DNA of 62,884 nucleotides, filler included. It is 6 parts of 6 records of this genome, joined end to end, with 100 filler letters (N's around TTAATTAATTAA, not from the genome) between each part and the next. Parts side by side here need not be neighbours in the genome. Positions count along the whole stretch, not along the records: positions 46,942 to 54,824 come from SRR22947727_1900; 5 more parts are not named here. One strand, 5' to 3'. Under the pieces are notes generated by a model, which saw only the letters and a program-made list of their open reading frames with translations, did not search any database and was not told where the DNA came from. The position numbers were made by a program, and so were the translations under genes. Below are positions 31,810-54,824 of this stretch, piece after piece. Numbering within the stretch: the stretch's first letter is position 1; each line of letters starts with the position of its first letter.

Positions 31810-31830
31810 TTGGCTAATTGAATAAGTATT

Positions 31831-33181: not shown

Positions 33182-33210
33182 TTGACGAGTGACGAATCCC
33201 TGACTATACG
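33182..33210 (+). promoter_or_regulatory. Sigma70-type promoter of the str operon
   Basis: TTGACG-17 nt-TATACG after an AT-rich UP-like tract; lack of the -7 T is common in Alphaproteobacteria. Confidence 0.75.
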
Positions 33211-33216
33211 GCGCTC

Positions 33217-33867: not shown

Positions 33868-33885
33868 TCGGGAAAAGAGACTAAG

Positions 33886-35970: not shown

Positions 35971-36035
35971 CTTATAGATATGCACCTTTATTATAGAAAT
36001 TAAAACAACTCCCATAGAGAGCACGGAGAATTAAA

Positions 36036-37211
36036 ATGGCAAAAGAAAAGTTTGAACGCAACAAGCCGCATGCGAATATAGGCACGATTGGTCACGTTGA
36101 TCATGGTAAGACAACGCTGACTGCAGCTATCACTAAATATTTTGGTGATTTTCAGGCATATGATGAGATTGATGGTGCTCCTGAAGAGAAGGCCCGTGGT
36201 ATAACAATCTCAACAGCACACGTTGAGTATGAGACGGAAAACCGTCACTATGCTCACGTTGATTGTCCAGGGCACGCTGACTATGTTAAGAATATGATCA
36301 CGGGTGCTGCTCAAATGGACGGCGGTATCTTGGTTGTTAATGCAGCTGATGGCCCAATGCCTCAAACACGTGAGCACATTTTGCTTGCGCGCCAAGTTGG
36401 TGTTCCGGCTCTAGTTGTTTACATGAATAAGGTTGACCAGGTTGACGATGATGAGCTTTTAGAGCTCGTTGAGATGGAAATACGTGAACTTCTTAGTTCA
36501 TATGATTTCCCTGGTGATGATATTCCTGTGATTGCTGGTTCAGCTCTTGCTGCTATGGAAGGTAAAAATCCAGAAATTGGTGAAGAATCTATCAGAAAGC
36601 TTATGGCTGCAGTGGATGAGTATATTCCACAGCCACCTCGTGCAATTGATGAGCCGTTCCTTCTTCCTATTGAAGATGTATTCTCTATATCTGGTCGTGG
36701 TACTGTTGTGACCGGTCGTGTTGAACGTGGCGCGGTTAATGTTGGTGATGAAATCGAGATTGTTGGTATTAAAGATACTCAAAAGACAACATGTACGGGT
36801 GTTGAGATGTTCCGCAAATTACTTGATCGTGGTGAAGCAGGTGACAACATCGGTGCTCTTATACGTGGTATCGATCGTGAAAAGGTTGAGCGCGGTCAAG
36901 TTCTTTGTAAGCCTGGTTCAGTTACACCGCATAAGAAGTTTGTTGGTGAAGCTTACATCCTGACTAAGGATGAGGGTGGTCGTCATACTCCATTCTTTAA
37001 TAATTACCGTCCACAGTTTTACTTCCGTACAACAGATGTTACGGGCGTTGTGACATTGGATGCTGGTACAGAGATGGTTATGCCAGGTGATAATGTAAAT
37101 ATTAATGTTGAGCTTATTGTGCCAATCGCAATGGAAGAGAAGCTTCGCTTTGCTATCCGTGAAGGTGGTCGTACTGTAGGTGCTGGCGTTGTTGGTAAAA
37201 TTATTGAGTAA
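36036..37211 (+). CDS. tuf: Elongation factor Tu
   Basis: [29 protein letters not shown]. Confidence 0.99.
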
Positions 37212-37220
37212 TTAAGGGTG

Positions 37221-37251
37221 AAAGAGTTCTTTTTTTTGAGCTCTTTTTTTT
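37221..37251 (+). terminator. Terminator/attenuator-like hairpin between tuf and rpsJ
   Basis: AAAGAGTTC/GAGCTCTTT stem followed by a T-run. Confidence 0.55.
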
Positions 37252-37283
37252 ATTTTAGAAAGCGTTAGAAACGGATTTCCACT

Positions 37284-37598
37284 ATGGATCGTCAAAATAT
37301 TCGCATTCGGTTGAAAGCATTCGACCACCGCATCTTAGATACCTCTACAAAAGAGATTGTAAGTACAGCTAAGCGTACAGGAGCAACTGTCAGAGGACCG
37401 ATTCCTTTGCCTACACGGATTGAACGGTTTACCGTAAATCGTTCACCTCACGTTAATAAGAAGTCTCGCGAGCAGTTTGAGATTAGAACACACAAACGGA
37501 TGCTTGATATAGTTGATCCAACACCGCAGACAGTTGATGCTTTAATGAAGCTCGACCTTGCCGCAGGTGTTGATGTTGAAATTAAGTTAGGGGCGTAA
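37284..37598 (+). CDS. rpsJ: 30S ribosomal protein S10
   Basis: [22 protein letters not shown]. Confidence 0.99.
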
Positions 37599-37600
37599 TT

Positions 37601-38350
37601 ATGTTGCGTTCAGGTTTATTGACAAAAAAAGTTGGTATGACTCAGGTATATGATGAGGCAGGAAATCATATACCTGTAACAGTCTTATCATTAGAGGGTT
37701 GTCAGGTAGTAGCTCATAAAACTGCCGCTAGGGACGGTTATACCGCTCTTCAGCTTGGTTCAGGCGAGGCAAAAGTTAATCGCGTTTCGAAAGCAGAGCG
37801 AGAACGTTTTTCTAAAGCAGCTGTAACTCCAAAAAAGAAATTAATCGAGTTTCGTGTTGAAGAGGATAAATTAATTGAAGTTGGCGCTGAAATGCTTGCT
37901 GACCATTTCGTACCAGGACAAAAGGTTGATGCTTCTGGAATTACTGTTGGTAAAGGTTTTGCAGGAGCAATGAAGCGCCATAATTTTGGCGGCTTAAGGG
38001 CTACTCATGGTGTTTCGATTTCTCATAGATCTCATGGCTCTACTGGACAATGTCAAGATCCTGGGAAAGTCTTTAAGGGCAAAAAAATGGCAGGGCATAT
38101 GGGAGCTGTAAGACGAACAGTTCAAAATTTAGAGATTGCCCGTGTCGATGCTGATCAGGGGTTGGTTCTAATTAAGGGCGCTACTCCTGGATCAAAGGGC
38201 GCCTGGATTGAAATTCGCGACGCTGTTAAAGGTCCAAAAGTTTCCGATTTACCTTTACCAGGCAGTTTTAATATATCTAAGGCCCCTGTAGAAGATGAAA
38301 TTGCTCCAAGTGACACCACTGAAAGCATAAACTCAAGTGAGGATATTTAA
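37601..38350 (+). CDS. rplC: 50S ribosomal protein L3
   Basis: [23 protein letters not shown]. Confidence 0.99.
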
Positions 38351-38352
38351 TT

Positions 38353-38973
38353 ATGAAAATTGATGTTCAAACACTTGATGGAAAGAAATCTGGATCTTTA
38401 GATCTTAGTAAAGACATATTTGGTCAGGAGCCCAGAAAAGATGTTCTTCACAGAATGGTTAGGTATCAGCTAGCTAAGCGACAATCTGGTACTCATCAGA
38501 CTCAAGAACGTGGAGATGTTTCTAAAACAACAAAAAGAATAGGTCGCCAGAAGGGCGGTGGTACTGCCCGTCATGGTAATGGATCTGTTTCTCAATTTCG
38601 TGGTGGTGCCAAAGCACACGGGCCCCGTTCAAGATCGCATGCAATTGGTTTGCCTAAGAAAGTTAGAGCAATGGCCCTTCGTCAAGCATTGTCAGCTAAA
38701 GCAACAGCTAAAGAACTTGTAATTATCGAAGATGCGTCAGCAAAATCGCCTAAAACAGCTGATTTGCTTAAGCAATTAATGGGATTAGGTATAACAAATT
38801 GTCTGGTTGTTAGCGGCTCGTCAATTGAAGAAAATTTTGCAAAAGCAGCTAAAAATATCCCAAATTTGGACGTTCTGCCTAGTCAGGGAGCTAATGTTTA
38901 TGATATTTTGAAGCGTCATACTTTGGTTTTAACTAAACAAGCGGTATTAGATCTGGAGGCTCGATTAAAATGA
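38353..38973 (+). CDS. rplD: 50S ribosomal protein L4
   Basis: [19 protein letters not shown]. Confidence 0.99.
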
Positions 38974-39266
38974 GTATTGCAGCCCGACATTATGATAGTG
39001 TTCTTTCTCCTATCATAACTGAAAAGTCCACAATTATAGCAGAAAATAATCAGGTCGTATTTGAAGTTCCTGTTTCCGCCAGTAAGCCAGAAATTAAAGA
39101 AGCGGTAGAGCAGTTATTTAAAGTATCTGTGACTGCGGTAAACACACTCCGTTTAAAAGGTAAAACCAAACGTTTCAGAGGTATTCCTGGTCGTAGGAAA
39201 GATATCAAAAAAGCGGTAGTCACCTTAAAAGATGGCGACAGCATAGACATAGCAACTGGATTGTAG
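38970..39266 (+). CDS. rplW: 50S ribosomal protein L23
   Basis: PIITEKS, KKAVVTL; operon position. Confidence 0.98.
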
Positions 39267-39275
39267 GGGGGAATT

Positions 39276-40112
39276 ATGGCTCTTAAGACATTTAATCCAA
39301 CTAGTCCTTCGAGAAGAAATCTCGTTCAGGTTGATCGTTCTGACCTTCACAAGGGTAGGCCAGAGAAATCACTAACAGAAGGTTTATCAAAAAAGGGTGG
39401 TAGAAATAACACAGGCAGAATAACTATGCGCCGTCAAGGCGGTGGTCATAAGCGTTTGTATCGAATGGTTGATTTTAAAAGATCAAAAAAAGACATGTCT
39501 GCTAATGTATTGCGCATTGAGTACGATCCAAATAGAACATCATATATTGCACTTATTCAGTATAAAGATGGTAAAAAAGCTTATATTCTTGCTCCACAAA
39601 GGTTAGCGGCTGGCGACACTGTGATTTCTTCTGATAAAGCTGATGTTAAGCCAGGAAATTCAATGCCTCTTCGTTCAATGCCGGTTGGTACTATTATTCA
39701 TAATATAGAGCTTAAGCCAGGAAAAGGTGGTCAGATAGCTAGATCAGCAGGTACATATGCTCAGCTAGTTGGTAGATCAGAGGGTTACGCGCAAGTCAGA
39801 CTTAAATCTGGTGAGATGCGAATGGTTCATCAGACTTGTTTAGCCACTGTTGGGGCTGTGTCAAACCCAGACCACATGAATATTAATCTAGGTAAGGCAG
39901 GGCGAAAGCGTTGGCTTGGTAAAAGACCTCAGGTTCGTGGTGTGGCTATGAACCCTGTGGATCACCCTCACGGGGGTGGCGAGGGTAGAACCTCAGGCGG
40001 TAGGCATCCGGTAACACCTTGGGGTAAACCCACAAAAGGTGCTCGTACTCGCTCAAATAAAGCGACTGATAAATTCATTATACGTTCGCGTCACGCGAAG
40101 AAGAAACGTTAA
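39276..40112 (+). CDS. rplB: 50S ribosomal protein L2
   Basis: [25 protein letters not shown]. Confidence 0.99.
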
Positions 40113-40126
40113 GGAGCGTAGAGAGT

Positions 40127-40405
40127 ATGCCACGTTCAGTTTGGAAAGGTCCGTTTGTCGACGGATATCTATTAAAAAAAGCAGAAGCGGCTAAGGCTGA
40201 AGGTAGGCACAAGCCTATCAAGACATGGTCGCGTCGCTCAACTATTATGCCAGGATTTGTAGGTCTCACATTTCAAGTTCATAATGGTCAGAAATTCATA
40301 CCTGTCATTGTAAATGAAGATATGGTTGGTCATAAATTCGGCGAATTTTCTCCAACACGTACCTATTACGGTCATGGTGTTGATAAAAAAGCAAAGCGGA
40401 AGTAA
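40127..40405 (+). CDS. rpsS: 30S ribosomal protein S19
   Basis: [21 protein letters not shown]. Confidence 0.99.
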
Positions 40406-40407
40406 TA

Positions 40408-40812
40408 ATGTCAAAATTAAAAAATCCACGTCGTGTTGCTGACAATGAAGCTAGGGCTAAATTACGTATGATACGTATTAGTCCTCAGAAACTAAATCTT
40501 GTTGCCCAGTTGATAAGGGGTAAAAGAGTTGAGACTGCCTTAGCGGACCTTGAATTTTCACATAAGCGTATTTCTGGGGAAGTTAAAAAAGTTCTCCAGT
40601 CTGCAATTGCAAATGCCGAAAATAATCATGGTTTAGATATCGATAGTCTTGTTGTTTCAGAAGCATATGTAGGAAAGAATTTAGTAATGAAGCGTTTTCG
40701 TGCTCGTGCACGTGGAAGAGGTGCTAGAATTTTAAAGCCTTTTTCTGAATTAACTATAGTTGTTCGTGAAGTAGAAGAGATATCAGCTGAAAATAATAGT
40801 GAGGCAGCGTAA
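40408..40812 (+). CDS. rplV: 50S ribosomal protein L22
   Basis: [23 protein letters not shown]. Confidence 0.99.
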
Positions 40813-41546
40813 TGGGACAGAAGATTAATCCAATTGGTTTGCGCTTAGGCATTAACCGAACTTGGGAATCTAGATGGTATGCTAATACTTCTGAATATGG
40901 GGATTTGCTTCATCAAGATCTTGCAATTCGTGCTTTTCTCAATGCCGAACTTAAAGCCGCCTCTGTAGCACGTATTATCATAGAGCGCCCTCATAAAACC
41001 TGTCGCGTAACTATATACACCGCTCGTCCAGGCGTTGTTATTGGAAAAAAAGGTGCAGACATAGAGGTCTTAAGAAAGCGTGTTGCATCAATGGTTGATG
41101 GTGAGGTATTCATAAATTTAGTCGAGGTTCGCAAGCCTGAAGTCGATGCTAATTTGGTAGCCGATGGAATTGCTCAACAGTTAGAGCGTAGGGTCTCGTT
41201 TCGAAGAGCTATGAAAAGATCTCTTCAGAGTGCTATGAGAATGGGTGCTAAGGGATGTAAAATTAAGCTTGGTGGTCGTCTTGGGGGTGCCGAAATTGCA
41301 AGGATTGAACAATATCAGGAAGGTTCTGTTCCTCTGCATACAATGCGTGCAGACATAGATTATGGTGTAGCCAGCGCTATGACCGCTATGGGAATAATAG
41401 GTATAAAAGTCTGGATTAATAAAGGTGAAATACTCGAGCACGACCCATATGCGCACGATAAACGAATGAATGATCAAGGTGATACCAGATCACGCGGAAA
41501 TAATGACCGTGGCGGCCGTGAACGCCGTCCGGCAAGATCTAATTAA
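40812..41546 (+). CDS. rpsC: 30S ribosomal protein S3
   Basis: [28 protein letters not shown]. Confidence 0.99.
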
Positions 41547-41561
41547 AAGGGGTTTTGAGCA

Positions 41562-41978
41562 ATGTTACAGCCAAAACGTACTAAATTTCGTAAAGCTCAC
41601 AAGGGCCGTATCAAAGGTGTGGCTAAGGGTGGATCCACCTTAAATTTTGGTTCTTATGGCCTTAAAGCTTTAGAGCCCGAACGGGTAACAGCCAGACAAA
41701 TCGAAGCTACTCGTAGGGCCATCACGCGTCATATGAAGCGTGCTGGTCGAGTTTGGATAAGAATTTTTCCGGATGTGCCTGTTACAAAAAAGCCAACTGA
41801 AGTCCGTATGGGTAAAGGTAAGGGTTCTGTCGAATTTTGGGCATGTAAGGTAAAGCCAGGGCGTGTGATGTTTGAAATTGATGGTGTATCAGATGGAGTA
41901 GCTAGGGAAGCTCTTCGTCTTGGAGCTGCAAAGTTACCAGTTAAGTGTAAAATTGTTACACGTCCTGGCGAACAGTAG
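41562..41978 (+). CDS. rplP: 50S ribosomal protein L16
   Basis: [18 protein letters not shown]. Confidence 0.99.
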
Positions 41979-41987
41979 GAGCAGGTG

Positions 41988-42188
41988 ATGAAGACAATTG
42001 ATGTAAGAACTATGACCGAGGATCAGCTTAGTGATGAGCTTCTTAAGTTAAAGAAGGAACAGTTTAACCTCCGCTTTCAAGAGGCGACTGGTCAATTAGA
42101 GAAAACTGCTCGTGTGAGAGAAGTGCGCAGGAATATAGCACGCGTGAAAACAATACAGGCTGAAAAAAAATCAGCTAAAAAGTCTTAA
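41988..42188 (+). CDS. rpmC: 50S ribosomal protein L29
   Basis: [21 protein letters not shown]. Confidence 0.98.
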
Positions 42189-42199
42189 GGTAGGTATAT

Positions 42200-42430
42200 A
42201 TGCCAAAACGCATACTTCAAGGAACTGTTGTATCTGATAAAGGTGAAAAAACAGTTGTTGTAAAAATTGAAAGGTCTTTTCTGCACCCATTGCTTAAAAA
42301 GACTATTCGTAGAACTAAAAAATATCATGCACATGATGAAAAAAATGTGCACAAGGTAGGCGATACAGTACGTATAATTGAATGTTCGCCTAAAAGTAAA
42401 TTAAAGCGGTGGGAGGTTCACGCTGAGTAG
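42200..42430 (+). CDS. rpsQ: 30S ribosomal protein S17
   Basis: [20 protein letters not shown]. Confidence 0.98.
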
Positions 42431-42474
42431 TTACTCTGCTCTTGTGTACAGCCCCTTAAAAAGGAGACAAACGC

Positions 42475-42843
42475 ATGATTCAAATGCAATCAAATCTTGA
42501 CGTCGCCGATAACTCTGGTGCCCGCCGCGTTCAGTGTATAAAGGTATTAGGTGGTTCTAAACGAAGATATGCTCATGTTGGTGATACCATTGTTGTATCT
42601 ATCAAGGAAGCTATTCCTCGTGGCAAAGTAAAAAAAGGAGAGGTGCGTAAAGCTATCGTCGTACGAGTTCGCAAAGATATTCAAAGACGTGATGGCTCTG
42701 TTATACGTTTTGATGGAAACGCAGCTGTAATTATAAATAACAATGGTGAGCCAATTGGTACGCGTATTTTTGGTCCAGTTCCTAGGGAGCTACGTGCTAA
42801 AAATCACATGAAAATTGTTTCTCTAGCACCCGAGGTTCTGTAG
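42475..42843 (+). CDS. rplN: 50S ribosomal protein L14
   Basis: [22 protein letters not shown]. Confidence 0.99.
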
Positions 42844-42845
42844 TC

Positions 42846-43166
42846 ATGGCAGCTAAGATAAAAAAAGGCGATCACGTTATCGTTATTGCTGGCAAAGATA
42901 AGGGCAGCAAGGGTGAGGTTTTAAAGGTCTTTCCAAAGGAAAGTAGACTTCTAGTAAAAGGAGTGCGTCTTGTTAAACGTCATGTAAAGCCAAGTCAGGG
43001 AGATCCGGACGGAGGTATAAAGACCTTTGAGGGGCCTATTCATATATCAAACGTTTCTCAACTTGACCCAAAAAATGGGAAGCCCACTAGAGTTGGTTTC
43101 AAGTCACTGAAAGATGGTAAAAAGGTCCGCGTGGCCATTAAATCCGGGGAGATAATCGATGGCTAA
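42846..43166 (+). CDS. rplX: 50S ribosomal protein L24
   Basis: [14 protein letters not shown] (KOW), PIHISNV. Confidence 0.99.
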
Positions 43167-43713
43167 GCCGTATGAACCGCGTCTTTCTGCAATATATCGT
43201 GATGAAATTCGCGATCAAATGCAGAAGCAATTTGAGTATAAAAATGAAATGCAGATACCAAAAATTGAGAAGGTTGTTCTTAACATGGGTTTGGGTGAGG
43301 GTGTTTCCGATAAAAAGAAGGTTCAAGCTGCAATAGCTGAACTGGAGTTAATAGCCGGTCAAAAGCCACTGCCAACAAAATCCAAGAAATCAATTGCAGG
43401 TTTTAAATTACGAGATGGAATGGTTATCGGTGCTAAAGTTACTTTGAGGCGTGATCAGATGTATGAATTTATTGACCGCTTAATTAACATTGCTTTGCCT
43501 AGGACTAGAGATTTCAGAGGACTTAATGGGAAAAGTTTTGATGGTAAGGGCAACTACGCTATGGGACTTAAAGAACATATTGTATTTCCAGAAATTAATT
43601 ATGATCAAGTAGACTCAGTAAAAGGTATGGATATTGTTGTTCAAACAACAGCTAAAACAGATAAAGAAGCTAAAGCATTGCTGGCAGCATTTTCGTTTCC
43701 ATTTCGAAACTAA
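43159..43713 (+). CDS. rplE: 50S ribosomal protein L5
   Basis: [19 protein letters not shown]. Confidence 0.99.
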
Positions 43714-43766
43714 ATTGTACGTGGTGAGCTAAGCAGGTCGAATGACCTCGCAAAAAGGAGAATAAA

Positions 43767-44072
43767 ATGGCTAAAGTAAGCTCAGTTGAGCGAAATTTAA
43801 AACGGCAGCGAATGGTTGCTAAGTATGCTGGTAAAAGGGCTTTATTAAAGGATATAGCACGAAACAAAGACCTCCCGGTAGAAGAAAGATTCAATGCTCA
43901 GCTGGAACTTGCAGCCTTGCCTCGCAATTCAGCTGAATCTCGTATTAGAAACAGGTGTCAGGTCACAGGTCGTCCTCGGGGTTATTATCGTAAAATGAAG
44001 ATGTCAAGAATTGCTCTTCGCGAGCTCGGTTCAGCTGGTATGCTGCCCGGCTTAGTCAAGTCAAGCTGGTAG
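43767..44072 (+). CDS. rpsN: 30S ribosomal protein S14 (long, non-zinc form)
   Basis: 101 aa; [20 protein letters not shown]. Confidence 0.99.
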
Positions 44073-44082
44073 GAGGTAAGAT

Positions 44083-44478
44083 ATGTCATTTTCTGATCCC
44101 TTAGGCGATATGCTTACACGTATTCGCAATGCAATAATGCGAAATAGAACTTCTGTCAGCACGCCCGCTTCAAATCTCCGCGGTCGTGTACTTGATGTTT
44201 TGGCTGATGAGGGTTTCATCAGAGGTTATTCCGAAGGTCAAGTTGATGGATTTCGAATTTTTAATATCGAATTGAAGTACTTTGAAGGTGAAGCTGTTAT
44301 TCGAGACATTAAGCGTGTATCCAAACCTGGCCGAAGAGTTTACTCTTCAGTTAAAACCTTACCCCAGGTTCGTAACGGTCTGGGTATTTCCATTTTATCA
44401 ACACCTAAAGGCGTTATGAGTGATAATTCTGCTCGCGATGCAAACGTCGGTGGTGAAGTATTGTGTCAGGTGTCTTAA
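44083..44478 (+). CDS. rpsH: 30S ribosomal protein S8
   Basis: [21 protein letters not shown]. Confidence 0.99.
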
Positions 44479-44480
44479 TC

Positions 44481-45014
44481 ATGTCTCGTATAGGAAAAAA
44501 ACCAATAGTAATACCATCTGCAGTGAATCTCACGCAAGAGGGTCAGAAAATTATAGCTAAAGGGCCAAAAGGTGAGTTAAATTTTATCCTTCCTGAAGGT
44601 ATAATAGGAAAAATTGAAGGTGATATTTTCACAGTTAATCCTGCGGTTGAAAACAAATCAGGTGTCTCTTTATGGGGTACGTGTCGTTCTATGGTAGCTA
44701 ATCTTATCGAGGGTGTTACTAACGGTTATAAGAAAGAGCTTGAACTAAAAGGTGTCGGTTACAGGGCTCAAATGAAAGGTTCTATGTTATCTATGCAGTT
44801 GGGCTTCTCACATGATGTTGAATATACTGCTCCTCAAGGAGTCACTGTTACAGCTCCAAAGCCAACTTCTGTAATAGTTGAAGGTATTGACAAACAAAAA
44901 GTTGGTCAAGTTGCTGCAATAATTCGATCATACCGAAAGCCCGAGCCCTATAAAGGTAAGGGTGTTCGTTACGTTGGCGAATATGTTCGAAGTAAAGAGG
45001 GTAAGAAGAAGTAA
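44481..45014 (+). CDS. rplF: 50S ribosomal protein L6
   Basis: MSRIGKKP (ATG 44481), PEPYKGKG. Confidence 0.99.
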
Positions 45015-45016
45015 TC

Positions 45017-45367
45017 ATGAAAACAGCTCGCGAAAATATGCTACGCCGCGCTCAGAGAGTTCGTCGTCGTTTGAAAAAATATTCTAATGGTCGTCCAAGA
45101 CTTTCTGTGTTCCGTTCTTCTAAGAACATTTATGTTCAGATTATTGATGATGCTTCTGGTACCACTCTAGCTTCTGCTTCAACAATCGAAGATAAAAAAA
45201 TGAAGGGTTCTAACTTAGACGCTGCAACTCGTATAGGTAAGTTAATTGCTGAAAGAGCCAAGAAGGCTAAAATCGAAGATGTTATTTTTGATCGTGGTCC
45301 TTATCTTTATCATGGCCGTGTGAAAGCTCTGGCAGATGCGGCTCGTGAAGCCGGTTTAAAATTCTAG
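45017..45367 (+). CDS. rplR: 50S ribosomal protein L18
   Basis: [19 protein letters not shown]. Confidence 0.99.
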
Positions 45368-45380
45368 GAAAGCATATATT

Positions 45381-45956
45381 ATGGCAGATAGAGAAGATAA
45401 TCGTCGTGGAAAGCGCGATGAAGAAAAAGAAAACGAGTTTATTGATCGTCTTGTGCACATTAACCGTGTGGCGAAAACTGTAAAAGGTGGTCGCAATATG
45501 AGTTTTGCTGCATTGGTCATAGTGGGTGATGAGAAAGGGCGAGTTGGTTTTGGTAAAGGGAAGGCGCGCGAAGTGCCTGAAGCTATTAGAAAGGCAACTG
45601 AAGAGGCAAAAAAGACTATGATACGCATTCCATTACGTGAAGGCCGGACACTGCATCATGACGTTCGAGGAAGGCATGGTGCCGGTAAGATAGTAATGAG
45701 GGCAGCTCCTCCAGGTACAGGCGTTATTGCCGGCGGTCCAATGAGGGCTGTGCTAGAGTGCTTGGGCGTTCAAGATGTTGTCGGAAAGTCTTTAGGAACA
45801 TCAAATCCATATAATATGGTTCGTGCAACTTTTGAAGGTCTTAAGAACATGGAAAGTCCCCGTACAATTGCAAATAAACGTGGCAAAAAAGTTGGTGATA
45901 TTGTTGGTCGCCGTAATGATGGTGCATCAGCTCCAGAAGCTGTAGTTCAGGCTTAG
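45381..45956 (+). CDS. rpsE: 30S ribosomal protein S5
   Basis: [18 protein letters not shown]. Confidence 0.99.
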
Positions 45957-45965
45957 GAGATAGAG

Positions 45966-46154
45966 ATGTCAAAGAAATTAACATTAAAAGTACGCCAAAC
46001 TGGAAGTCCCATTCGTCGTAAGCCAGATCAGAGAGCAACATTGGTTGGTTTAGGTCTGGGCCGAATAGGTAGTATGCGTGAATTAGAGGATACACCTTCT
46101 GTTCGCGGTATGATAAATAAAATTTCACACATGGTTGAAATAGTTGAAGAGTAG
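45966..46154 (+). CDS. rpmD: 50S ribosomal protein L30
   Basis: SPIRR, TLVGLGL, VRGMI. Confidence 0.98.
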
Positions 46155-46190
46155 TACAACTGATACTGGAAGCTTCTGCTGGAGATAAAA

Positions 46191-46841
46191 ATGCGTTTAA
46201 ATGAATTAAGAGATAACATAGGTGCTACTAAAAACCGACTAAGAGTTGGTCGCGGTGTTGGCTCCGGTAAGGGTAAAACTGCTGGTAGGGGCGTTAAAGG
46301 GCAGAAGTCTAGATCTGGTGTTTCAATTAATGGTTTTGAAGGCGGCCAAATGCCTATTTACATGCGTCTGCCTAAGCGTGGTTTTAACAAGCCCAACAGA
46401 AAGAGTTGGACGGAGCTATCAGTAATTAATTTACAAAAAGCTATTGAAAGCGGAAAAATTAAATCAGGTATAAAATATGATGAGGCTTCCTTGGTTTCTA
46501 CCGGAGTAATTAGACGCATTAAAAGTGGTGTGAGGTTGATTGGATCTGGAAAACTTTCTGAAGCTGTTGACTTGGCCATCTCTGGTGTAACTCCTGGAGC
46601 ATTGAAGTCTATAGAGGATGCCAAAGGGTCTATATCAATTGTTGATAGTTCGACAAAATACAGAGCAAAAGGTGTAAAAGCGGAAAAGTCTGATAAACTA
46701 TCTAAGAGTGATAAGAAAAAAAATGTTAAAGTTTTAAAAGAGAAATCTGAGAAAATAGCTAAAAATACGCCGTCTAAAGCCAAAGATGAACCCGCTGCAA
46801 ATAAGACTACAGCTAAAAAAGCTGCTGAGAAGAAGACTTCA
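46191..46841 (+). CDS. rplO: 50S ribosomal protein L15 with Lys-rich C-terminal extension; truncated by the linker
   Basis: [28 protein letters not shown]. Confidence 0.98.
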
Positions 46842-46941: not shown

Positions 46942-46942
46942 G

Positions 46943-47057
46943 CTGGCCTTGGTGGCCGCTGCTGCCAATTATCTCCCAGTTGTTAGAACAGATCTGAGGG
47001 GCTTGTCCCTGCGTTAGTCCTGGGATTTTGTGCAATTGGGATCGATGGTGTGCAACT
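46943..47057 (+). repeat. att-like module, copy 1 (24-nt core plus paired TGTGCAAYT boxes)
   Basis: Core CTGGCCTTGGTGGCCGCTGCTGCC at 46943-46966; boxes at 47029 and 47049; aligns ungapped with 54688-54802. Confidence 0.85.
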
Positions 47058-47142
47058 GAGGCATCGAGGCCTTGATGGTTTTTTGAAGCTGGCTTGGAAT
47101 GCGTTTCCTGTTGATTGGCTCTGATTGGTTCAGTCTCAAGTT

Positions 47143-48450
47143 CTATGACCCCAGGATTGCCGTGCACTCAAGTCTTTCTTGGGAGGCATCGCGACGCTGC
47201 AAACGCAGGCTGATGACCCTGGCGAGATAACGCGCATCCTCGCTAACTCCGCAGAAGCGCCCGGAGCCCCAGGTATGCAGCCATGGCAAACCGATGAAAT
47301 ACAGGCCGGCGCTTTGGGTGACCCCGCGATCATGGGCAGGCAAACCACTCCCATCAAAAACGGGCGCATCAATCCAGCTAAAATCACTGCTATATCCCGT
47401 ACACCAGATCACCGCAGCAAGGGGCTTTGTATTCAAATCAATGCCAGGGTCATTCACGTTTGGGGGTTGCCAACACGGGGAATACGCCGGCTCGATCGGT
47501 GCAGCAATTCCTTCATTTTCGATCCAGCTGTCAATGCTGCTGCGAATGCGGCAGTACACAGCATCGGCCTGATCAAGATTGGCGGCTAAATCATCGGCGA
47601 AGCCGATGTGGTCTCCGGTGATGCTGGATAGACGACCATGCAATTGCATCCCTTCCATTGCACGTCGGCGCAAGTCAATTTCTCGACCGCCGTCACGACC
47701 GGTGAGGTAATGGTTGGTCTTCGATCGGACCGTCCGTGGGTCTGAGTGATCGCTTATAGGCATGGCGTAATAGCCCATCCGGTCTAGCCAATCAACAACG
47801 TCCTTGCCTCGGTAACGGCGCGGAGATCGTGGCGCTCGACCCACACTCAAATGGACAGAACGCCCTGCAAGGTGGAGGTCCTCGGCGATCTGACTGCCTG
47901 ATTGGCCATTCCCGACCACCAACACAGGGCCTTCGGGGAAAGCATCAGGGTTTCGGTAGGAACGCGCATCGATTTGTTGTAACGAGGTGGGTAGACGTTG
48001 GGCGTATGGATGACGACGGGGAATGTGATACCCCCCAGTTGCAACGATGACGTGTTCGGCATCGATCACTCCCTCGGTGGTGATCAATCGGTAGCCATTG
48101 CCAATGGGTGTGAGACGTTCGACAGCAACTCCTTCGCGTAAATCAGCGTTGACCTGCTGAGCAAAGCGCTGGAGATAATTCACAATGGATTTCTTGGCCA
48201 TGAAGCCGTCTGGCTGATCGCCGTCGTAGGGGAAATCAGGCAGACGGCATTGCCAGTTTGGTGTGACTAAACAGAACGAATCCCACCGTTGCTGGTCCCA
48301 TGCATAGGCGACACGGTGTTTTTCGAGAACGAGAGGTTTTAGCCCTTGCAGTTGCAGTGCATGAGCCACGGAAAGACCAGCTTGGCCTGCTCCGACGATG
48401 ACAACCGAACGGCGCTTTGACGATTCATTCTGGGTTGATATGTCTTTCAC
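47143..48450 (-). CDS. nitH: MSMEG_0569-family flavin-dependent oxidoreductase (NitH)
   Basis: GAGQAG, RWDSFCLVTPNWQC, GNGQSGSQIAEDL, WLHTWGSGRF; start could be GTG 48450 or ATG 48510. Confidence 0.88.
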   Translation of the reverse strand: MKDISTQNESSKRRSVVIVGAGQAGLSVAHALQLQGLKPLVLEKHRVAYAWDQQRWDSFCLVTPNWQCRLPDFPYDGDQPDGFMAKKSIVNYLQRFAQQVNADLREGVAVERLTPIGNGYRLITTEGVIDAEHVIVATGGYHIPRRHPYAQRLPTSLQQIDARSYRNPDAFPEGPVLVVGNGQSGSQIAEDLHLAGRSVHLSVGRAPRSPRRYRGKDVVDWLDRMGYYAMPISDHSDPRTVRSKTNHYLTGRDGGREIDLRRRAMEGMQLHGRLSSITGDHIGFADDLAANLDQADAVYCRIRSSIDSWIENEGIAAPIEPAYSPCWQPPNVNDPGIDLNTKPLAAVIWCTGYSSDFSWIDAPVFDGSGLPAHDRGVTQSAGLYFIGLPWLHTWGSGRFCGVSEDARYLARVISLRLQRRDASQERLECTAILGS

Positions 48451-48548
48451 CAATTGAAAGTCTTTAATGTATGTGGGAATCTTCCAACGCCGATGTAGCT
48501 GAAGGCACATAAATAGGAAAGTGGAGTTTTGGATCTGACCCGAATTTT

Positions 48549-48564
48549 TGTAACATTAATCACA
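48549..48564 (+). promoter_or_regulatory. NtcA-like binding site in the nitH/nitB divergent region
   Basis: TGTAACATTAATCACA = TGT-N10-ACA / GTA-N8-CAC; -10-like CACGAT at 48587, 23 nt downstream. Confidence 0.6.
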
Positions 48565-48614
48565 TCACAGAGCGGATCAATTCGGACACGATTGGTGTAC
48601 CAAGAAAAATCTAA

Positions 48615-49097
48615 ATGCCTACAGTTGATCGTCCCGCCAATCAGCCCGGTGATTTCCTTGTCGATTATGAGGAGAAAGTCTTTCCTGATATCAAGGCCGA
48701 CCCCGGAGAAAAGGCTTTAGTCACATTCCATACAGTGGCTTTCGAGGGATCCATCGGCCTTGTCAATCTCCTGCAAGCTAGCCGTTTAATCACTAAAGGC
48801 TTTGAGACTTCTGTCCTGCTCTATGGTCCTGGCGTCACACTGGGTGTGATGCGCGGCTTCCCCAAGCTTGGCGATGCAGCGTTTGATGGTCATCTGAACT
48901 TCAATGCCCGCCTCCAAAAATTCATGGATCAAGGCGGAAAAGTTTATGCCTGTCGGTTTGCCTTGCAGGCCCTGTATGGACATGGTGAAAAAGCATTGAT
49001 GCCTGGAATCACGCCAGTTAATCCACTTGATGTTCTCGACATCGTCTTGATGCACCGTAAAGAAAACGCCTTCATTCTTGATACCTGGACGCTTTGA
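48615..49097 (+). CDS. nitB: MSMEG_0572/Sll0783-family protein (NitB, DsrE-like)
   Basis: [37 protein letters not shown]. Confidence 0.92.
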
Positions 49098-49121
49098 CTT
49101 TCACTTTTGGGTTTGTTCACT

Positions 49122-50120
49122 GTGACTACAATTAAGGTTGCTGCTGCCCAGATCCGTCCTGTCCTTTTCAGTCTGGACGGATCCCTCCAGAGGGTGCTCG
49201 ATGCCATGGCTGAAGCAGCATTCCAGGGTGTTGAGCTGATCGTATTTCCTGAAACTTTCCTGCCGTATTACCCCTATTTTTCGTTTGTTGAACCACCTGT
49301 TCTGATGGGTCGTTCCCATCTGGCCCTCTACGAACAGGCCGTGGTGGTACCGGGGCCAGTAACTGATGCAGTTGGTGCTGCTGCACGTCAACACGAAATG
49401 CAGGTTCTCCTCGGTGTCAATGAACGTGATGGTGGGACGCTCTACAACACGCAACTGTTGTTCAACAGTTGCGGCGAGATTGCTTTGAAACGTCGGAAAA
49501 TTACACCGACCTATCACGAGCGAATGGTCTGGGGTCAAGGTGACGGCTCAGGCCTGAAGGTGGTGCCCACGCCACTGGCCCGCGTCGGAGCCCTGGCCTG
49601 TTGGGAGCACTACAACCCACTTGCCCGTTACGCCTTGATGGCCCAGGGCGAGGAGATCCACTGCGCTCAGTTTCCCGGCTCTCTGGTGGGACCGATTTTC
49701 AGTGAACAGACCGCCGTCACCATGCGTCATCACGCTCTGGAAGCCGGGTGTTTCGTGGTCTGTTCCACCGGCTGGCTCGACCCCGATGACTATGCGTCGA
49801 TCACGCCTGAGACGACTCTGCATAAGGCGTTTCAAGGGGGTTGTCATACCGCCGTGATCAGCCCTGAAGGCCGTTATCTGGCTGGTCCTTTGCCTGATGG
49901 TGAGGGGTTGGCTATCGCCGATCTGGATCTCGCACTGATCACCAAGCGCAAACGGATGATGGACAGCGTCGGCCATTACAGCCGTCCCGAACTGCTGTCT
50001 CTGCACATCAACAGCATGCCTGCGGTCCCCGTCCATGACATGACTACGTCATTGGTTCCTTTGACTCCAGCCTCGGCTCCTGATGGCCTGTCATCGATGG
50101 AGACGTTGAACCATGTCTGA
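49122..50120 (+). CDS. nitC: Nit1C (Nit6803-type) nitrilase
   Basis: Catalytic E-K-C in [33 protein letters not shown]. Confidence 0.95.
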
Positions 50121-51201
50121 TCTTGGTCGCCTGGTCACTGAACTCCAGGTGAATGGGGTTCGGGTTGACTCTTTAAAGGGAAACACTGGACGACGGGGAG
50201 GTGCGGGTCCCTCCGATCACCGTGCCTTGGATCTCAACGGCACCACTGTGATGGTGCCCGTCTACAACGATGCTTCCGCATCGTCTCCTTACAAGCTCGC
50301 ATCCTCTGGTGCTGCTCTTGCGATCGAGGGACCCGAGCAGCAATGTTCTCCAGAGATCACAACCCCACGAGAGCCCCAGTTTTATGGCTTGAGCACAGAC
50401 GACGGAATCTCCTATCGATCGATTGCCTTGCTGCACAGCAAGGATGTATTGGCGACCACGCTGCTGCAGACCTGCATCCGCTTCCGGGATCGATCGCAGT
50501 CCTGTCAGTTCTGCGCCATTGAACAGTCGATCGACGATGGTGCCTTGATTCGCAAAACTCCCGATCAGGTCGCGGAGGTGGCGGAAGCCGCTGTCCGTTT
50601 GGATGGGGTCAAGCAGCTGGTGATGACCACTGGAACGCCCAATAGTGATGATCGCGGTGCTCGTTTGATGGCTGAAACCGCTGAAGCGGTCAAACGTCGG
50701 GTCAATGTCCCAATCCAGGGCCAGTGTGAACCGCCGGAGGATCCGAGCTGGTACCAACGCATGAAGGAGTCTGGAATCGACAGTCTCGGTATACATCTAG
50801 AGGTTGTTGAGCCTGATGTACGGCGTCGGATCCTTCCAGGGAAATCGGAGCTCAGTCTTGAGCGCTACTACGAAGCCTTCGCCGATGCCGTTGCCGTGTT
50901 CGGGCGGGGTGAGGTGTCGACGTATCTTCTGGCAGGACTAGGCGATAGCAAAGAGGCCTTGCTGGCCTGCAGTCGCCGCCTGATTGAACTCGGGGTCTAC
51001 CCCTTTGTAGTGCCCTTTGTTCCGATCTCTGGAACTCCACTTGAGAGCCATCCATCACCAGACAGCTCTTTCATGGTTGACGTTTATCAGGGTGTTGCGG
51101 CGATGCTGAAAGCGGGGGATCTGCGCTCCGAGCAGATGTCCGCCGGTTGTGCCAAATGCGGAGCTTGCTCGGCGCTCTCTCTGTTCGAGAAGGCTTCGTA
51201 G
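50113..51201 (+). CDS. nitD: MSMEG_0568-family radical SAM protein (NitD)
   Basis: [11 protein letters not shown]-x9-C-x2-C ([14 protein letters not shown]), C-terminal CAKCGACS. Confidence 0.93.
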
Positions 51202-51203
51202 TC

Positions 51204-51872
51204 ATGGTCTCGTGTCTTGATCCCAGCAGCTGCGGCATTGGCCGCAGCATCAGCTCCGCACCGCATCTGTTCACGCCGTCTGTGCGCGGTGGCATCGGCA
51301 TCGATGCCGATGATTTTCGTCTGTCTCCCACAGCGGCCTCGGACCGTTTCACCTTTCATCTGCTGCGTTCCGATTCCTCTCTGATGCAGGGGTACTGGTC
51401 GTTGCGGCGTGGCATTTTCTGCAGCGAACAGCACGTTTTCGAAAGTTCGGATCGTGATGAGCTTGATGCGTTCGCCTATCCGATTGCTGCACTGCACCAC
51501 AGCTCAGACCCAGAGCATGATGACTCTGCCGACATGAGTGTCGTTGGCGTGGTTCGTATCGTCGAGACGGAATCGCGTCTCTGGTACGGCGGTCGTCTTG
51601 GCGTGCACAGCGACTTCCGACGTCACAATCAAATCGGTAAGGGGTTGATTTGGAAGGCAGTCACAACAGCGAATGGTTGGGGATGCGATCGCTTTCTTGC
51701 CACCGTACAGATTCAAAATGTTCGCTTTTTCCGTCGCTTGCACTGGTCTTCGGTTGACGAGCTAGAGATCCGGGGCATCCGCCATCACCTGATGCAGGCC
51801 GACCTCACGTATTACGTGCCATCCCGTGAACAACGCCCGATCGCCTTGCCCAAACTCTCTATCGCGGCGTGA
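51204..51872 (+). CDS. nitE: MSMEG_0567/Sll0786-family GNAT acetyltransferase (NitE)
   Basis: FCSEQ..F..SDRDE, WYGGRLGV, FLATVQ.QNV.FF; ATG 51204. Confidence 0.9.
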   Translation: MVSCLDPSSCGIGRSISSAPHLFTPSVRGGIGIDADDFRLSPTAASDRFTFHLLRSDSSLMQGYWSLRRGIFCSEQHVFESSDRDELDAFAYPIAALHHSSDPEHDDSADMSVVGVVRIVETESRLWYGGRLGVHSDFRRHNQIGKGLIWKAVTTANGWGCDRFLATVQIQNVRFFRRLHWSSVDELEIRGIRHHLMQADLTYYVPSREQRPIALPKLSIAA

Positions 51873-52846
51873 GTGACTTGCCTCTCGTGAACGCCTTGCG
51901 GAGGTCCAGTGGCCTTCAGGCGAAGAGTGATATCCGCTCGGCTGCGGCCACCTTTTGCCATCAGCCATTTCCACAGCTGGGATTGGCTGGGATGCTCGGT
52001 GATGACACCGCCGTGGTGCCTGCCCAGATAGGTCAGCTGCTGCTGGCCTGTGAGGGGATGCATCCAGACCTCGTTGAGGAGGACCCCTGGTTCGCAGGCT
52101 GGAGTGGAGTTTTGGTCAACCTCAGTGACATCGCGGCCATGGGTGGTCGACCGCTGGCTCTGGTGAACAGTGTCTGGAGCACCGACGCGGAAGGTATGAG
52201 TGCCTTGATGGAGGGAATGCAATTCGCGTGCGATCGCTTTGGTGTGCCAATGGTGGGTGGCCACTCCAACCAGCAGAGCTCCTTCCAGGCGCTCTCTGTT
52301 TCCGTTCTAGGAGTAGCAGATGGTCCCGTTCTGTCCGCTCGCGCAGCACGTCCCGGCGATGAGCTTTGGATGCTGGTTAATAAAGCTGGAGGCTTTTATC
52401 GCCACTACCCCTTCTGGGATGCAGCAACCCATGCCCCTCCCGAACGTCTTCGCAGCCAGCTCGCACTGTTGCCTGCTCTGGCCGCAGCACAACTTGTACA
52501 CGCCGCCAAGGACATCAGCATGGGAGGAATCACTGGCACCGCGGTGATGTTTGCCGAAGCCTGCGGGCACCAACTGATCCTTGATCTGGATGCTGTGGAA
52601 GGTCCTGGTGACGTCCTCGACGAGACCTGGCTTACTTGCTTTCCAAGCTTTGGATACCTCCTGGCTGTTGATCCCACGCGCACTCCAGCCCTTGAGCAGA
52701 TGATGGCGAGTGATCCGACACTGATTTGCTGCCGAATTGGAGATTTTGCAGAGGGTGATTGCAGTGTGCTGTTGCAGCACTCCGGGGCGATACATCGCTT
52801 CTGGGATGGCAGTCATGCGCTCACTGGTTTTGGCTGTGTTCGATGA
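51869..52846 (+). CDS. nitF: Sll0787-family AIR synthase-like protein (NitF)
   Basis: LGDD, VNLSDIAAMGGRP, VGGHS, AKDISMGG, FPSFGYLL. Confidence 0.92.
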   Translation: MSDLPLVNALRRSSGLQAKSDIRSAAATFCHQPFPQLGLAGMLGDDTAVVPAQIGQLLLACEGMHPDLVEEDPWFAGWSGVLVNLSDIAAMGGRPLALVNSVWSTDAEGMSALMEGMQFACDRFGVPMVGGHSNQQSSFQALSVSVLGVADGPVLSARAARPGDELWMLVNKAGGFYRHYPFWDAATHAPPERLRSQLALLPALAAAQLVHAAKDISMGGITGTAVMFAEACGHQLILDLDAVEGPGDVLDETWLTCFPSFGYLLAVDPTRTPALEQMMASDPTLICCRIGDFAEGDCSVLLQHSGAIHRFWDGSHALTGFGCVR

Positions 52847-52898
52847 GACAGCCATTGGCAAAGTTACCGTGCAAAGTCGAGCAATTCGGCTGTGATCG

Positions 52899-53180
52899 AT
52901 GCCTGAAGTTCGTTTTCAACTGGAGTGGCCAGACGGACAAATCAGCACGTTGTACTCACCTTCCACAGTGATCCTTGATTATTTCCAACCCGGTGATTCC
53001 TTGTTGGTTTCTGAGCTTGAGTCGCGTGGCGTTGAAGCCCTTCGCGAAGCATCCGAACGCGTTCGCGCCCGTTATGGCTTTGCCTGCACTCGCACCAATG
53101 AGGAGGAATCTCAGCTGCGTGAATGGATCTCCCGCTACAGCTCCGATGACACCGTTCGTGTGACTGGACCACAAACCTAA
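52899..53180 (+). CDS. nitG: MSMEG_0570-family protein (NitG)
   Basis: MPEVRF..WPDG....[17 protein letters not shown]. Confidence 0.92.
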
Positions 53181-53208
53181 TTATCACTTTTTTATTGAGC
53201 TGCCCTCA

Positions 53209-53676
53209 ATGTCTGGAAAACCCCCTTTCCCTCCATTCACCCTTGAAACCGCTCGCCAGAAAGCGCGCATGGCGGAAAATGCTTGGAACAGCAAAGATGC
53301 CGACAAGGTTTCACTCGCCTATACCGAAGACAGCGTTTGGCGGAACCGCAGTGAATTCATTCAGGGTCGAGCTGAAATCTTGGCCTTCCTACAGCGCAAA
53401 TGGGCCAAGGAACTGGACTACAAATTGATCAAGGAGGTCTGGGCCTGCAGCGACAACCGCATCGCTGTTCGCTTCCAGTACGAGTGGCGCAACGCCGAAA
53501 GCCAGTGGTTCCGCGCCCATGGCAATGAAAACTGGGAATTCGCCGAGAACGGCTTGATGTCCCGGCGTGAAGCCAGCATCAACGATGTGCCGATTGGGGA
53601 GAGCGACCGTCTTTTCACCTGGAGTGATGGCCCCAGGCCCGATGATTTCCCAGGGCTGACGGAGCTGGGTCTCTGA
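53209..53676 (+). CDS. DUF1348 / NTF2-like (SnoaL-fold) protein
   Basis: [36 protein letters not shown]. Confidence 0.9.
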
Positions 53677-53680
53677 GCGG

Positions 53681-54469
53681 ATGGAGCTGAACCGCCACCC
53701 GCTGCCGCAGGCGATCCACACGATGGCGGATCTACAGCTGTTCATGGAACACCACGTGTTCGCGGTGTGGGATTTCATGCTGTTGCTCAAGACCTTGCAG
53801 CAGCACCTGGCTCCTTCCGGCGCGCCCTGGGTGCCACCGACTCATCCCGAGATTGCTGGCCTGGTGAACAGCCTGGTGGCGGAAGAGGAATGTGATCTTC
53901 TGCCCGAGAGCCTCGGAGGACCTCTGCATCTGCCCCATTTCGCGATCTACAGGCGTGCAATGGGGGAAATAGGAGCGGACACCACAGTGATCGATGCAGT
54001 CATCCAAAAAGCAGCAGGCGGCGATCTGACCAGAGCACTTCTCCACGAAGGGATTCCTGGGCCCTCCGCGCGGTTCATTCGCAGAACGCAGGCATTGATC
54101 GCGGCCGGTGAAATCCACGCCCTGGCGGCGGCATTTGCCTATGGCCGGGAGCTGTTAGTTCCGGGTTTATTTCGAGATCTTCTTGATCGCCTGAGCGTGT
54201 TGGCGCTGCCATGTCCAACGCTGCGCTGGTACCTCGAACGTCACATTTCCCTTGATGGTGAAAGCCATGGACCATTGGCGGAATCGATGGTTCTCACTCT
54301 TGCTGGAACCAATACTGCTGCTCATGCACGGGTTCAATCAGTTCGTAAAAAGGTGCAAGCCGATCGGTCTGAGTTCTGGGATGCAATTGACACCAAGCTT
54401 CGGGAGAGGTCTCAGATCAATCGATCCCGCGGCGAACATTCACACATGCTCTGTTCTGGTCTGACCTAA
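53681..54469 (+). CDS. DUF3050 heme-oxygenase-like putative diiron protein
   Basis: FMEHHVFAVWDFM, EEECD, GRE, YLERHISLDGESHGP. Confidence 0.85.
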   Translation: MELNRHPLPQAIHTMADLQLFMEHHVFAVWDFMLLLKTLQQHLAPSGAPWVPPTHPEIAGLVNSLVAEEECDLLPESLGGPLHLPHFAIYRRAMGEIGADTTVIDAVIQKAAGGDLTRALLHEGIPGPSARFIRRTQALIAAGEIHALAAAFAYGRELLVPGLFRDLLDRLSVLALPCPTLRWYLERHISLDGESHGPLAESMVLTLAGTNTAAHARVQSVRKKVQADRSEFWDAIDTKLRERSQINRSRGEHSHMLCSGLT

Positions 54470-54640
54470 CTCCAAACATCGTGACGGCTCAGGCGGTCTG
54501 TTTGACGTTTTGGCATGTGGTTCGTGTTGGCTGCGATTTTTACCCGTCTGGTTAGCGGTGATCCTTGGAGGTGCTGTTTTGCGGTGGAGTGGATAAATTG
54601 CCCCTGGCCTGGTCCATTCCTCAGCAGAATCACTGCATTG

Positions 54641-54742
54641 ATGATGAGCGTGGTGGCTGGAGCTGGTGTGAATCCTGCTGATCAACACTGGCCCTGGTGG
54701 CCGCTGCTGCCGCTTGAGAGTGTTTATTTGCAGTGGATTTAA
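54641..54742 (+). pseudogene. 5' fragment of a DUF4336-like gene, interrupted just after the att-like core
   Basis: MMSVVAGAGVNPADQHWPWWPLLPL then a short unrelated tail and stop. I recall this motif as the N-terminus of cyanobacterial DUF4336 proteins (normally continuing YPYG); not verified by search. Confidence 0.6.
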
Positions 54743-54802
54743 GGGTCGTGTCTCTGAAATGTCCCTCGTTTGTTGTGCAACTGGGCAGGAGTGTGTGCAA
54801 CT
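54688..54802 (+). repeat. att-like module, copy 2
   Basis: Core CTGGCCCTGGTGGCCGCTGCTGCC at 54688-54711; TGTGCAACT boxes at 54774 and 54794. Confidence 0.85.
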
Positions 54803-54824
54803 CTCCAGTGGTTTCATCCTGCTT

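Follow-up and report, generated by a model that had tools for sequence, protein, structure and literature searches.

A Nit1C cassette between copies of a DUF4336-derived module in marine Synechococcus: a candidate site of cassette exchange

Cargo segments that are flanked by att sites and carry neither integrase nor transfer genes are known as cis-mobilizable elements (CIMEs) from site-specific accretion in Streptococcus thermophilus (ICESt). Integrons hold their gene cassettes in arrays, and clusters of attC sites lacking integron-integrases (CALINs) are also found. SXT/R391 elements insert in the 5' end of a protein-coding gene, prfC, and are equipped with their own integrase and conjugation genes. 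Here, a contig of 7,883 bp (positions 46942-54824; G+C content 0.555) was analysed, in which the nitrilase gene cluster Nit1C lies between two direct copies of a module derived from the 5' end of a gene for a DUF4336 protein. It is one of six contigs that make up the window, i.e. the whole stretch of 62,884 bases under study (G+C content 0.41 to 0.63), in which successive contigs are separated by linkers of the form N44-TTAATTAATTAA-N44, and the repeat with its cargo spans the whole of it.

Tycheposons, as far as the available parts of the two sources go, occupy seven tRNA/tmRNA sites, or tRNA-Phe, and carry tyrosine recombinases (10.1101/2020.12.28.424599, PMC8995045). For Nit1C, the available part of PMC10119275 describes a seven-gene nitHBCDEFG layout around a nitrilase, treats it as a niche-linked cluster of marine Synechococcus and Prochlorococcus from warm, iron-replete, low-nitrogen waters and documents its patchy distribution without a mechanism. 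In the literature covered, which did not extend to the supplementary island tables of PMC7522525 and PMC10119275 where the region could be listed, no account was found of a Synechococcus cassette site at DUF4336 or beside chrA.

The contig analysed here is a single cassette of ~7.75 kb that comprises Nit1C (nitHBCDEFG-like) together with genes for a DUF1348 and a DUF3050 protein. It differs from the Nit1C of PMC10119275 in these two additional genes and in its place as one cassette within an array at DUF4336. The cassette reading holds: the contig comes from a co-oriented array of cassettes directly upstream of DUF4336 that share one junction module. That these cassettes are exchanged by recombination between modules, with a site-specific recombinase in trans as the preferred enzyme, is given about an even chance.

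Such an array resembles CIMEs in its direct att-type repeats, the lack of an integrase inside, the tandem arrangement at one site in the end of a protein-coding gene and a mover that is presumed to act in trans. Unlike in CIMEs, no element encoding a cognate integrase was found in or around the site, up to 8-9 junctions occur per array, a long conserved arm is present on one side of the junction only, and the host is a free-living marine cyanobacterium. Nutrient-acquisition cargo, repeated insertion at one island site and partial target copies at the junctions are shared with tycheposons, whereas the target, the 5' end of DUF4336, and the lack of a recombinase in six arrays set the locus apart from them. 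Like integrons and CALINs, it is an ordered, co-oriented array with recombination-site-like repeats that can lack an integrase and has one fixed end; in contrast to integrons, its modules form no hairpin, its multi-gene cassettes measure 1-19 kb and use both strands, an IntI-type gene next to the array is lacking and the left part of the site is the 5' coding sequence of a gene. As for SXT/R391, insertion would hit a gene at its very beginning, and the gene would be preserved by the new start and first codons that the incoming DNA brings along; SXT, by contrast, has its own integrase and conjugation genes and forms no long cassette arrays.

It is proposed tentatively, at somewhat less than even probability, that the array represents an undescribed, lineage-wide, integron-like platform anchored in the first codons of DUF4336, in which a ~130-nt element is read by a recombinase encoded elsewhere. 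Whole modules would thereby be shuffled within and between clades, from Nit1C, uptake of phosphonate or phosphite and export of arsenite and chromate to polyketide genes, psbA and giant surface proteins. This recombinase may be a core enzyme of the host or a transient one borne by phages or vesicles. If true, the platform would be the Synechococcus counterpart of the Prochlorococcus tycheposons, with another site, another architecture and no enzyme in cis. The gain and loss of niche-defining gene sets in marine Synechococcus is largely unexplained, and the array offers a concrete, testable route of exchange. It occurs in roughly a seventh of the sampled genomes of the family and in most of one genus, ties genes related to nitrogen, phosphorus, arsenic and chromate, pigment and surface proteins together at one locus, and provides, with the module sequence, a probe to fish cassettes from metagenomes or long reads and to compare cargo inventories across oceans.

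A junction module built on the start of DUF4336

An earlier note on this DNA had described one module at both ends of the contig, and both copies are indeed present in the same direction; the left one, which starts at base 2 of the contig, is truncated. The cores (46943-46966 and 54688-54711) were identical at 23 of 24 positions with a start-to-start offset of 7745, and their only difference (CCT/CCC) is synonymous in the frame W-P-W-W-P-L-L-P. The shared 17-mer (at most one mismatch) occurred 2 times in the window, compared with 0.00 occurrences expected from 100 shuffles. Both copies also contain the GATyTrAGGG...TGTCyCTG block and two TGTGCAAYT boxes each (Table 1), which align with each other without gaps over ~95 nt 3' of the core.

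This pattern is very improbable as an artefact, in which the ends would be the overlap of a circular or mis-joined contig, or as a generic promoter duplication, in which they would be two copies of a common promoter. Although the contig begins right at the core and ends 21 nt past box 2, with contigs from public runs breaking there too, its two ends show just 74% similarity beyond the core and hence do not overlap. The right copy holds the start of DUF4336, presumably with its promoter; the module was, however, confined to this island and always located at cassette boundaries. In addition, genome G008, which is assembled as a single contig of 2.51 Mb, contains a module, the same nine genes (77-97% identical to those of the window at the amino acid level) and a second module, with a start spacing of 7746 as against 7745 in the window. 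One of the scenarios that the earlier note had named as a refutation, a generic promoter duplication or an assembly artefact, is thus contradicted.

The contig was found in near-identical form in 19 runs from 8 studies, and the public-run contigs break at the same bases as the window contig. Word depth in the last bin (54569-54824) was ~4 to 16 times that in the body of the contig (38.9 versus 9 in run X1, 493 versus ~30 in X6 and 144 versus ~10 in X11). The multi-copy module is the likely cause of the break at both contig ends, because it is a repeat that short-read assemblers cannot cross. The same break pattern was observed for an 8,037-nt contig of the relative L001 and for many module matches at contig ends; the module likewise explains the recurring short contigs with identical sequence at start and end in single-cell and metagenome-assembled genomes (MAGs). 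No joint leading back from the right to the left end of the contig was found among the runs compared with it, at a raw-read depth of ~1, which gives no power to reveal a circle, and with contigs instead of reads in the other three runs. A joint skipping 7771 nt was rejected as a deletion, since it represents another copy of the module with its own 26-nt middle.

The peptide W-P-W-W-P-L-L-P belongs to the N-terminus of a DUF4336 protein (PF14234, E about 1e-115). In the complete genome G032, chrA is directly followed by an intact DUF4336 gene, whose product starts M-G-S-E-V-A-G-A-G-V-N-P-A-D-Q-R-W-G-F-W-P-L-L-P-L-Y-P-Y-G-R-R-R-T. The right end of the window contig encodes the same first 24 codons (M-M-S-V-V-A-G-A-G-V-N-P-A-D-Q-H-W-P-W-W-P-L-L-P) and then diverges up to a stop. 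The ~35-nt core, which has TGGCCGCTGCTGCC as its end, copies DUF4336 from about codon 13 to codon 25. At the right end of the contig, similarity to the modules of relatives begins ~118 nt 5' of the core, at 54570, and positions 54570-54802 match the stretch after chrA in L001 and L002, where the gene left of Nit1C is this chromate transporter gene, itself preceded by an ACR3-type SBF gene. In G008, G032 and G006, the last core of the array continues into a full-length DUF4336 gene followed by DUF760, lepB, menD and menB. Therefore, each cassette closes with an additional copy of the DUF4336 start, in many cases accompanied by a remnant of chrA, which is commonly located upstream of DUF4336. 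The right variable stretch and the element that follows it are part of the next cassette, with the contig ending 21 nt further on. The protein-coding target postulated in the earlier note could thereby be named: it is the 5' end of DUF4336 and not an unnamed small gene.

Two other interpretations of this frame were discarded. The 75-amino-acid open reading frame (ORF) at 54515-54742 is not a separate gene, being the truncated copy of the first 24 DUF4336 codons that runs on to a stop, and a conserved small peptide was rejected, with the stop at one common position in only 27 of 68 copies and earlier in most of the others.

Modules were aligned using 47 distinct copies from about a dozen genomes, or 68 copies with the metagenome loci included. 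The complete module spans ~130 nt, with the ~35-nt core followed by ~20 variable nt and a conserved element, C, a non-coding stretch of ~95 nt. Core and C are joined at the identical base in all 68 copies, and in the 47-copy alignment conservation stops sharply after box 2. Within element C, the two TGTGCAAYT boxes are spaced by 20 nt, a TTGTCCCTG-like word is directly repeated and an inverted repeat of 14 bp is present. The halves of the inverted repeat were complementary in 88.5% of cells, with both-side changes at 4 of 6 pairs, and 0-6 of 500 shuffles reached the observed values. Judged from their sequence, the inverted repeat, the direct repeat and the spaced boxes would be features of protein-binding DNA. 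A role of the module as an RNA element was rejected, as the contig and the loci of four relatives gave no Rfam match at E values up to 1 and RNAalifold yielded no consensus structure for C (-0.29 kcal/mol, 3 pairs, 45 copies); the same fold shows that the modules are not hairpin sites of the attC type. An origin of C as decayed continuation of DUF4336 was likewise dismissed, the alignment score not exceeding those of 1000 shuffles.

Shared ends around different cargo

The earlier note had expected the same ends to bound other cargo, and many unrelated gene sets were indeed located between modules. A 241-nt query (upstream B stretch, core and C) matched 36 of the 51 genomes of the genus of G003, about ten of the 36 in the B/core part only, and with core and C as the query, 54 of 401 sampled genomes of the family gave a match, no more than two candidates being scored in each. 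Both counts are lower bounds, since only some of the candidates were scored. Islands contained 9 (G014), 8 (G028), 5 (G027), 3 (G032), 2 (G008) and 2 (G006) full modules, and in genomes assembled as one large contig all copies were located in one island and on one strand. The cargo between modules included genes for phosphonate transport with a ptxD-like dehydrogenase, ACR3-type SBF, chrA, psbA, giant RTX/cadherin proteins (adhesins), a sulfatase with its maturase, glutathione transferases, Crp and LuxR regulators and the mechanosensitive channel MscS. A cassette with genes for a methyltransferase, a flavin adenine dinucleotide (FAD) monooxygenase and a type III polyketide synthase (PKS) was present in four genomes, at different places of the array (Table 1).

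Nit1C itself was found beside differing neighbours. It is directly preceded by chrA in L001, L002 and G027 and by a 1.9-kb cassette in G008, whereas in L003 it has an amine-oxidase side on its left and the PKS cassette on its right, the right junction being a scar without core or C. The empty sites that the earlier note had called for were recovered in part: G045 possesses DUF4336 and the upstream arm, with no C among the scored candidates and chrA located elsewhere, and arrays without Nit1C do occur.

Four paralogous giant proteins, one per cassette, were noticed in G028 (L144 2139-18748, L143 8951-14902). They comprise 1,418-1,983 amino acids and combine DUF4347 with RTX or SWM/RCC1 repeats. 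Several of their genes lie next to modules that have private variants in common, a pattern that suggests duplication of cassettes or gene conversion within one array.

How cassettes may be exchanged

Through recombination between modules, cassettes would be gained, lost and reordered. Two direct modules would release the DNA between them as a circle with one complete module. Any other module could take up this circle again, as could the core within DUF4336, the incoming 5' copy then rebuilding the gene. The preferred candidate for the enzyme is a site-specific recombinase that acts in trans and recognises C and core, a view whose probability falls only slightly short of even; the reason is that a non-coding stretch of 95 nt, in which words are symmetric and repeated and whose edge is sharp, has been conserved across genera. 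Integration by a tyrosine integrase in trans at a tRNA-like att is still an inference. If a recombinase is involved, the module would be half of a new site-and-enzyme pair.

A neighbouring integrase, which the earlier note had proposed to look for, did not turn up: with the Pfam integrase and resolvase models, none was found beside any module (2-kb flanks in the case of metagenome loci). The nine cargo ORFs between the cores lack a Pfam recombinase domain, no match to PF00589 or PF00239 was obtained within or beside the arrays of 5 complete genomes, and no recombinase domain was detected among the array ORFs scanned in six genomes, including G027. The notion of a non-autonomous, att-bounded cassette therefore stands in so far as the ends are successive junctions that also bound other cargo and no integrase is present in cis; its cognate integrase was not found. 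Measured against the described systems, the att-type direct repeats at both ends and the lack of recombination and transfer genes between them agree with CIMEs; the search just described returned no related element of the same host group that encodes a cognate recombinase. The lack of PF00589 matches near the arrays fits a CALIN-like state, yet the sites are not attC. As regards tycheposons, neither the nine genes nor the arrays contain a tyrosine recombinase, and the duplicated target is coding rather than tRNA or tmRNA, with no RNA family matched on the contig (no dedicated tRNA scan was part of this comparison). The only near case of an integrase beside a module, in G045 (L153), was rejected, as what lies ~1.3 kb from the integrase fragment is just 60 nt of the spacer next to chrA, with neither core nor C.

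Alternatively, the cassettes could be immobile fossils, left by integrase-bearing islands of the tycheposon or prophage type that inserted in succession and lost their integrases, an improbable reading. Tandem insertions with duplicated att pieces, as reported in the available parts of two accounts for Prochlorococcus tycheposons (10.1101/2020.12.28.424599) and the tRNA-Phe site of Synechococcus (PMC8995045), would provide a precedent. It is also in keeping with a DUF3854 (Toprim-like) protein of 909 amino acids encoded just past the last module of G028 (L143 4498-7227), the sole replication- or mobility-flavoured gene near an array, and with an IS3-type transposase gene (rve, HTH_21; L105 2313-3209, genome G004, contig C61) on a 3.6-kb contig with a module fragment at one end, ~400 nt away. 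Decay is, however, difficult to reconcile with six arrays in which no integrase remnant was found, with a site that is not a tRNA and with the two-box pattern, for which 0 matches were found in a viral contig collection. Moreover, a metagenome contig of 10,971 nt (L162) carries cargo 99-100% identical to that of the window next to a different left junction, pointing to recent exchange.

The comparison of L162 with the window also bears on the enzyme. Apart from the other left arm, the two differ at 11 of 38 bases between core and inverted repeat, and the mosaic switches sharply at the inverted repeat, ~40 nt right of the core. A second sharp switch, read from alignments of L133 with a G014 copy, lies ~8 nt left of the core. 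Automatic mapping of breakpoints over all pairs of copies was dominated by the conserved left arm; it returned five pairs with agreeing right and differing left flanks, among which the window and L162 were the only one with a sharp switch. Two sharp breakpoints at differing positions in the module fit homologous recombination at least as well as one crossover point. The array might thus operate without a dedicated recombinase, with modules and DUF4336/chrA arms serving as portable homology through which RecA deletes, inserts, swaps and homogenises cassettes by exchange inside one chromosome or with DNA from outside; this possibility is given a probability short of even, only a little below that of a recombinase in trans. 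Element C would then have been kept because only C-bearing cassettes spread, or because it serves another purpose, for instance by blocking transcripts that run on from the duplicated promoter of DUF4336. The lack of a recombinase in or near the arrays, the very unequal lengths of the left arms, the junction scars without core and the several G028 copies with private variants in common, as under gene conversion or segmental duplication, are all consistent with the action of RecA. Homology leaves unexplained, however, the sharp edge, the inverted repeat with changes on both sides and the spaced pairs of boxes across genera, as well as the join of core and C at the same base in all 68 copies, and several copies offer no more homology than the ~130-nt module. 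If no recombinase is involved, the array would be a clear natural case of portable homology organising the flexible genome.

Several observations weigh against a site-specific recombinase acting on an array that ends at DUF4336. A single site-specific crossover predicts one breakpoint rather than two at different places of the module. The left arms consist of DUF4336/chrA sequence that is anywhere between ~12 nt and over 400 nt long and fall into at least two allelic types, a spread of lengths as unequal homologous exchange would give. Some junctions lack core and C, namely the right end of L003 and the relocated chrA copies in G021, G045 and G037. No DUF4336 was found in the 70 kb of G028 examined, so that the rule that arrays end at this gene was not seen there, and, as read by eye without a formal test, no integrase family tracks the presence of the array over the 51 genomes. 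Finally, the covariation in the inverted repeat is due in part to copies of a single genome that are related to each other.

In several copies of the chrA-DUF4336 spacer (L003/L107 15397, L154 ~5150, L155 ~4812 and L156 ~5185), the sequence breaks off where the core begins or a little further in, and unrelated DNA follows. They are a second class of junctions, which is not fully accounted for by any of the readings considered here.

Features of the contig and its surroundings

The genes between the cores match Nit1C in content: a central nitrilase is followed by radical SAM, GNAT and AIR-synthase-like proteins, with a flavoprotein and two small proteins without Pfam match around them, and the gene order is the same in relatives. 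All features are compiled in Table 1.

Table 1. Features of the Nit1C contig (window positions) and two cargo types of related arrays (positions within the loci named)
Feature	Position	Strand	Remarks
Left module, core part	46942..46966	+	last 8 codons W-P-W-W-P-L-L-P of the truncated DUF4336 5' copy; upstream part lost at contig start
Left module, variable stretch and element C	46967..47060	+	inverted repeat 46997-47010; TTGTCCCTG-like direct repeat; boxes 47029-47037 and 47049-47057
Flavin-dependent oxidoreductase	47143..48510	-	Pyr_redox_3, 6.7e-26; NitH position of Nit1C
160-aa protein, no Pfam match	48615..49097	+	NitB position; relatives 97-98% identical
Nitrilase NitC	49107..50120	+	CN_hydrolase PF00795, 1.7e-55
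Radical SAM protein	50113..51201	+	NitD position
GNAT acetyltransferase	51147..51872	+	NitE position
AIR-synthase-related protein	51869..52846	+	NitF position
93-aa protein, no Pfam match	52899..53180	+	NitG position
DUF1348 / SnoaL-like protein	53209..53676	+	accompanies Nit1C in the cassette
DUF3050 protein	53681..54469	+	last cargo gene of the cassette
Left arm at right end	54570..54687	+	degenerate remnant of chrA stop region, chrA-DUF4336 spacer, DUF4336 start (ATG 54641) and first codons
Right module, core W-P-W-W-P-L-L-P	54688..54711	+	truncated DUF4336 frame continues to stop 54740-54742
Right module, variable stretch and element C	54712..54803	+	inverted repeat 54742-54755; boxes 54774-54782 and 54794-54802
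Type III PKS three-gene set	L003 15689-18734; L150 6707-9743; L145 11863-14821; L151 5991-8426		
psbA-type gene between two modules	L141 18100-19179 (G032); L149 9755-10834 (G006)		Photo_RC, E about 1e-89

The contig is derived from marine Synechococcus; its nitrilase is 92-93% identical to homologues in two Synechococcus single-cell genomes and one Synechococcus MAG; it is missing from G001, the nearest of the comparison genomes. The bin looks mixed, because among the contigs of the window one (29687-46841, 41% G+C) carries an operon for ribosomal proteins, EF-G and EF-Tu and another stretch (11615-22000, 60% G+C) recA, recX, cinA and ftsK, and the Nit1C contig and its neighbours in the window may come from different organisms.

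In the more distantly related Synechococcus sp. MIT S9452 (L004 2580-13984), Nit1C is located by the start of chrA, on the side opposite to a DUF4336 homologue (48% identity). No module is present, and DUF1348 and DUF3050 were not aligned.

About 40 nt after the stop of chrA (TGATCCAT...CACTGCATTGAT; window 54607-54645) were also detected after the stop of an unrelated small ORF in G045 (L153 15020-15079). The island around this ORF holds a fragment of a tyrosine integrase, ~1.3 kb away, and a second integrase of full length. The recurring stretch may be a separate small conserved element.

Inspection by eye showed a short hairpin with a run of T behind it at 47061-47085, immediately past the second box of the left module. 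It is conserved only in copies that precede Nit1C and may terminate transcription, either of the convergent flavoprotein gene or of transcripts that read through out of the module.

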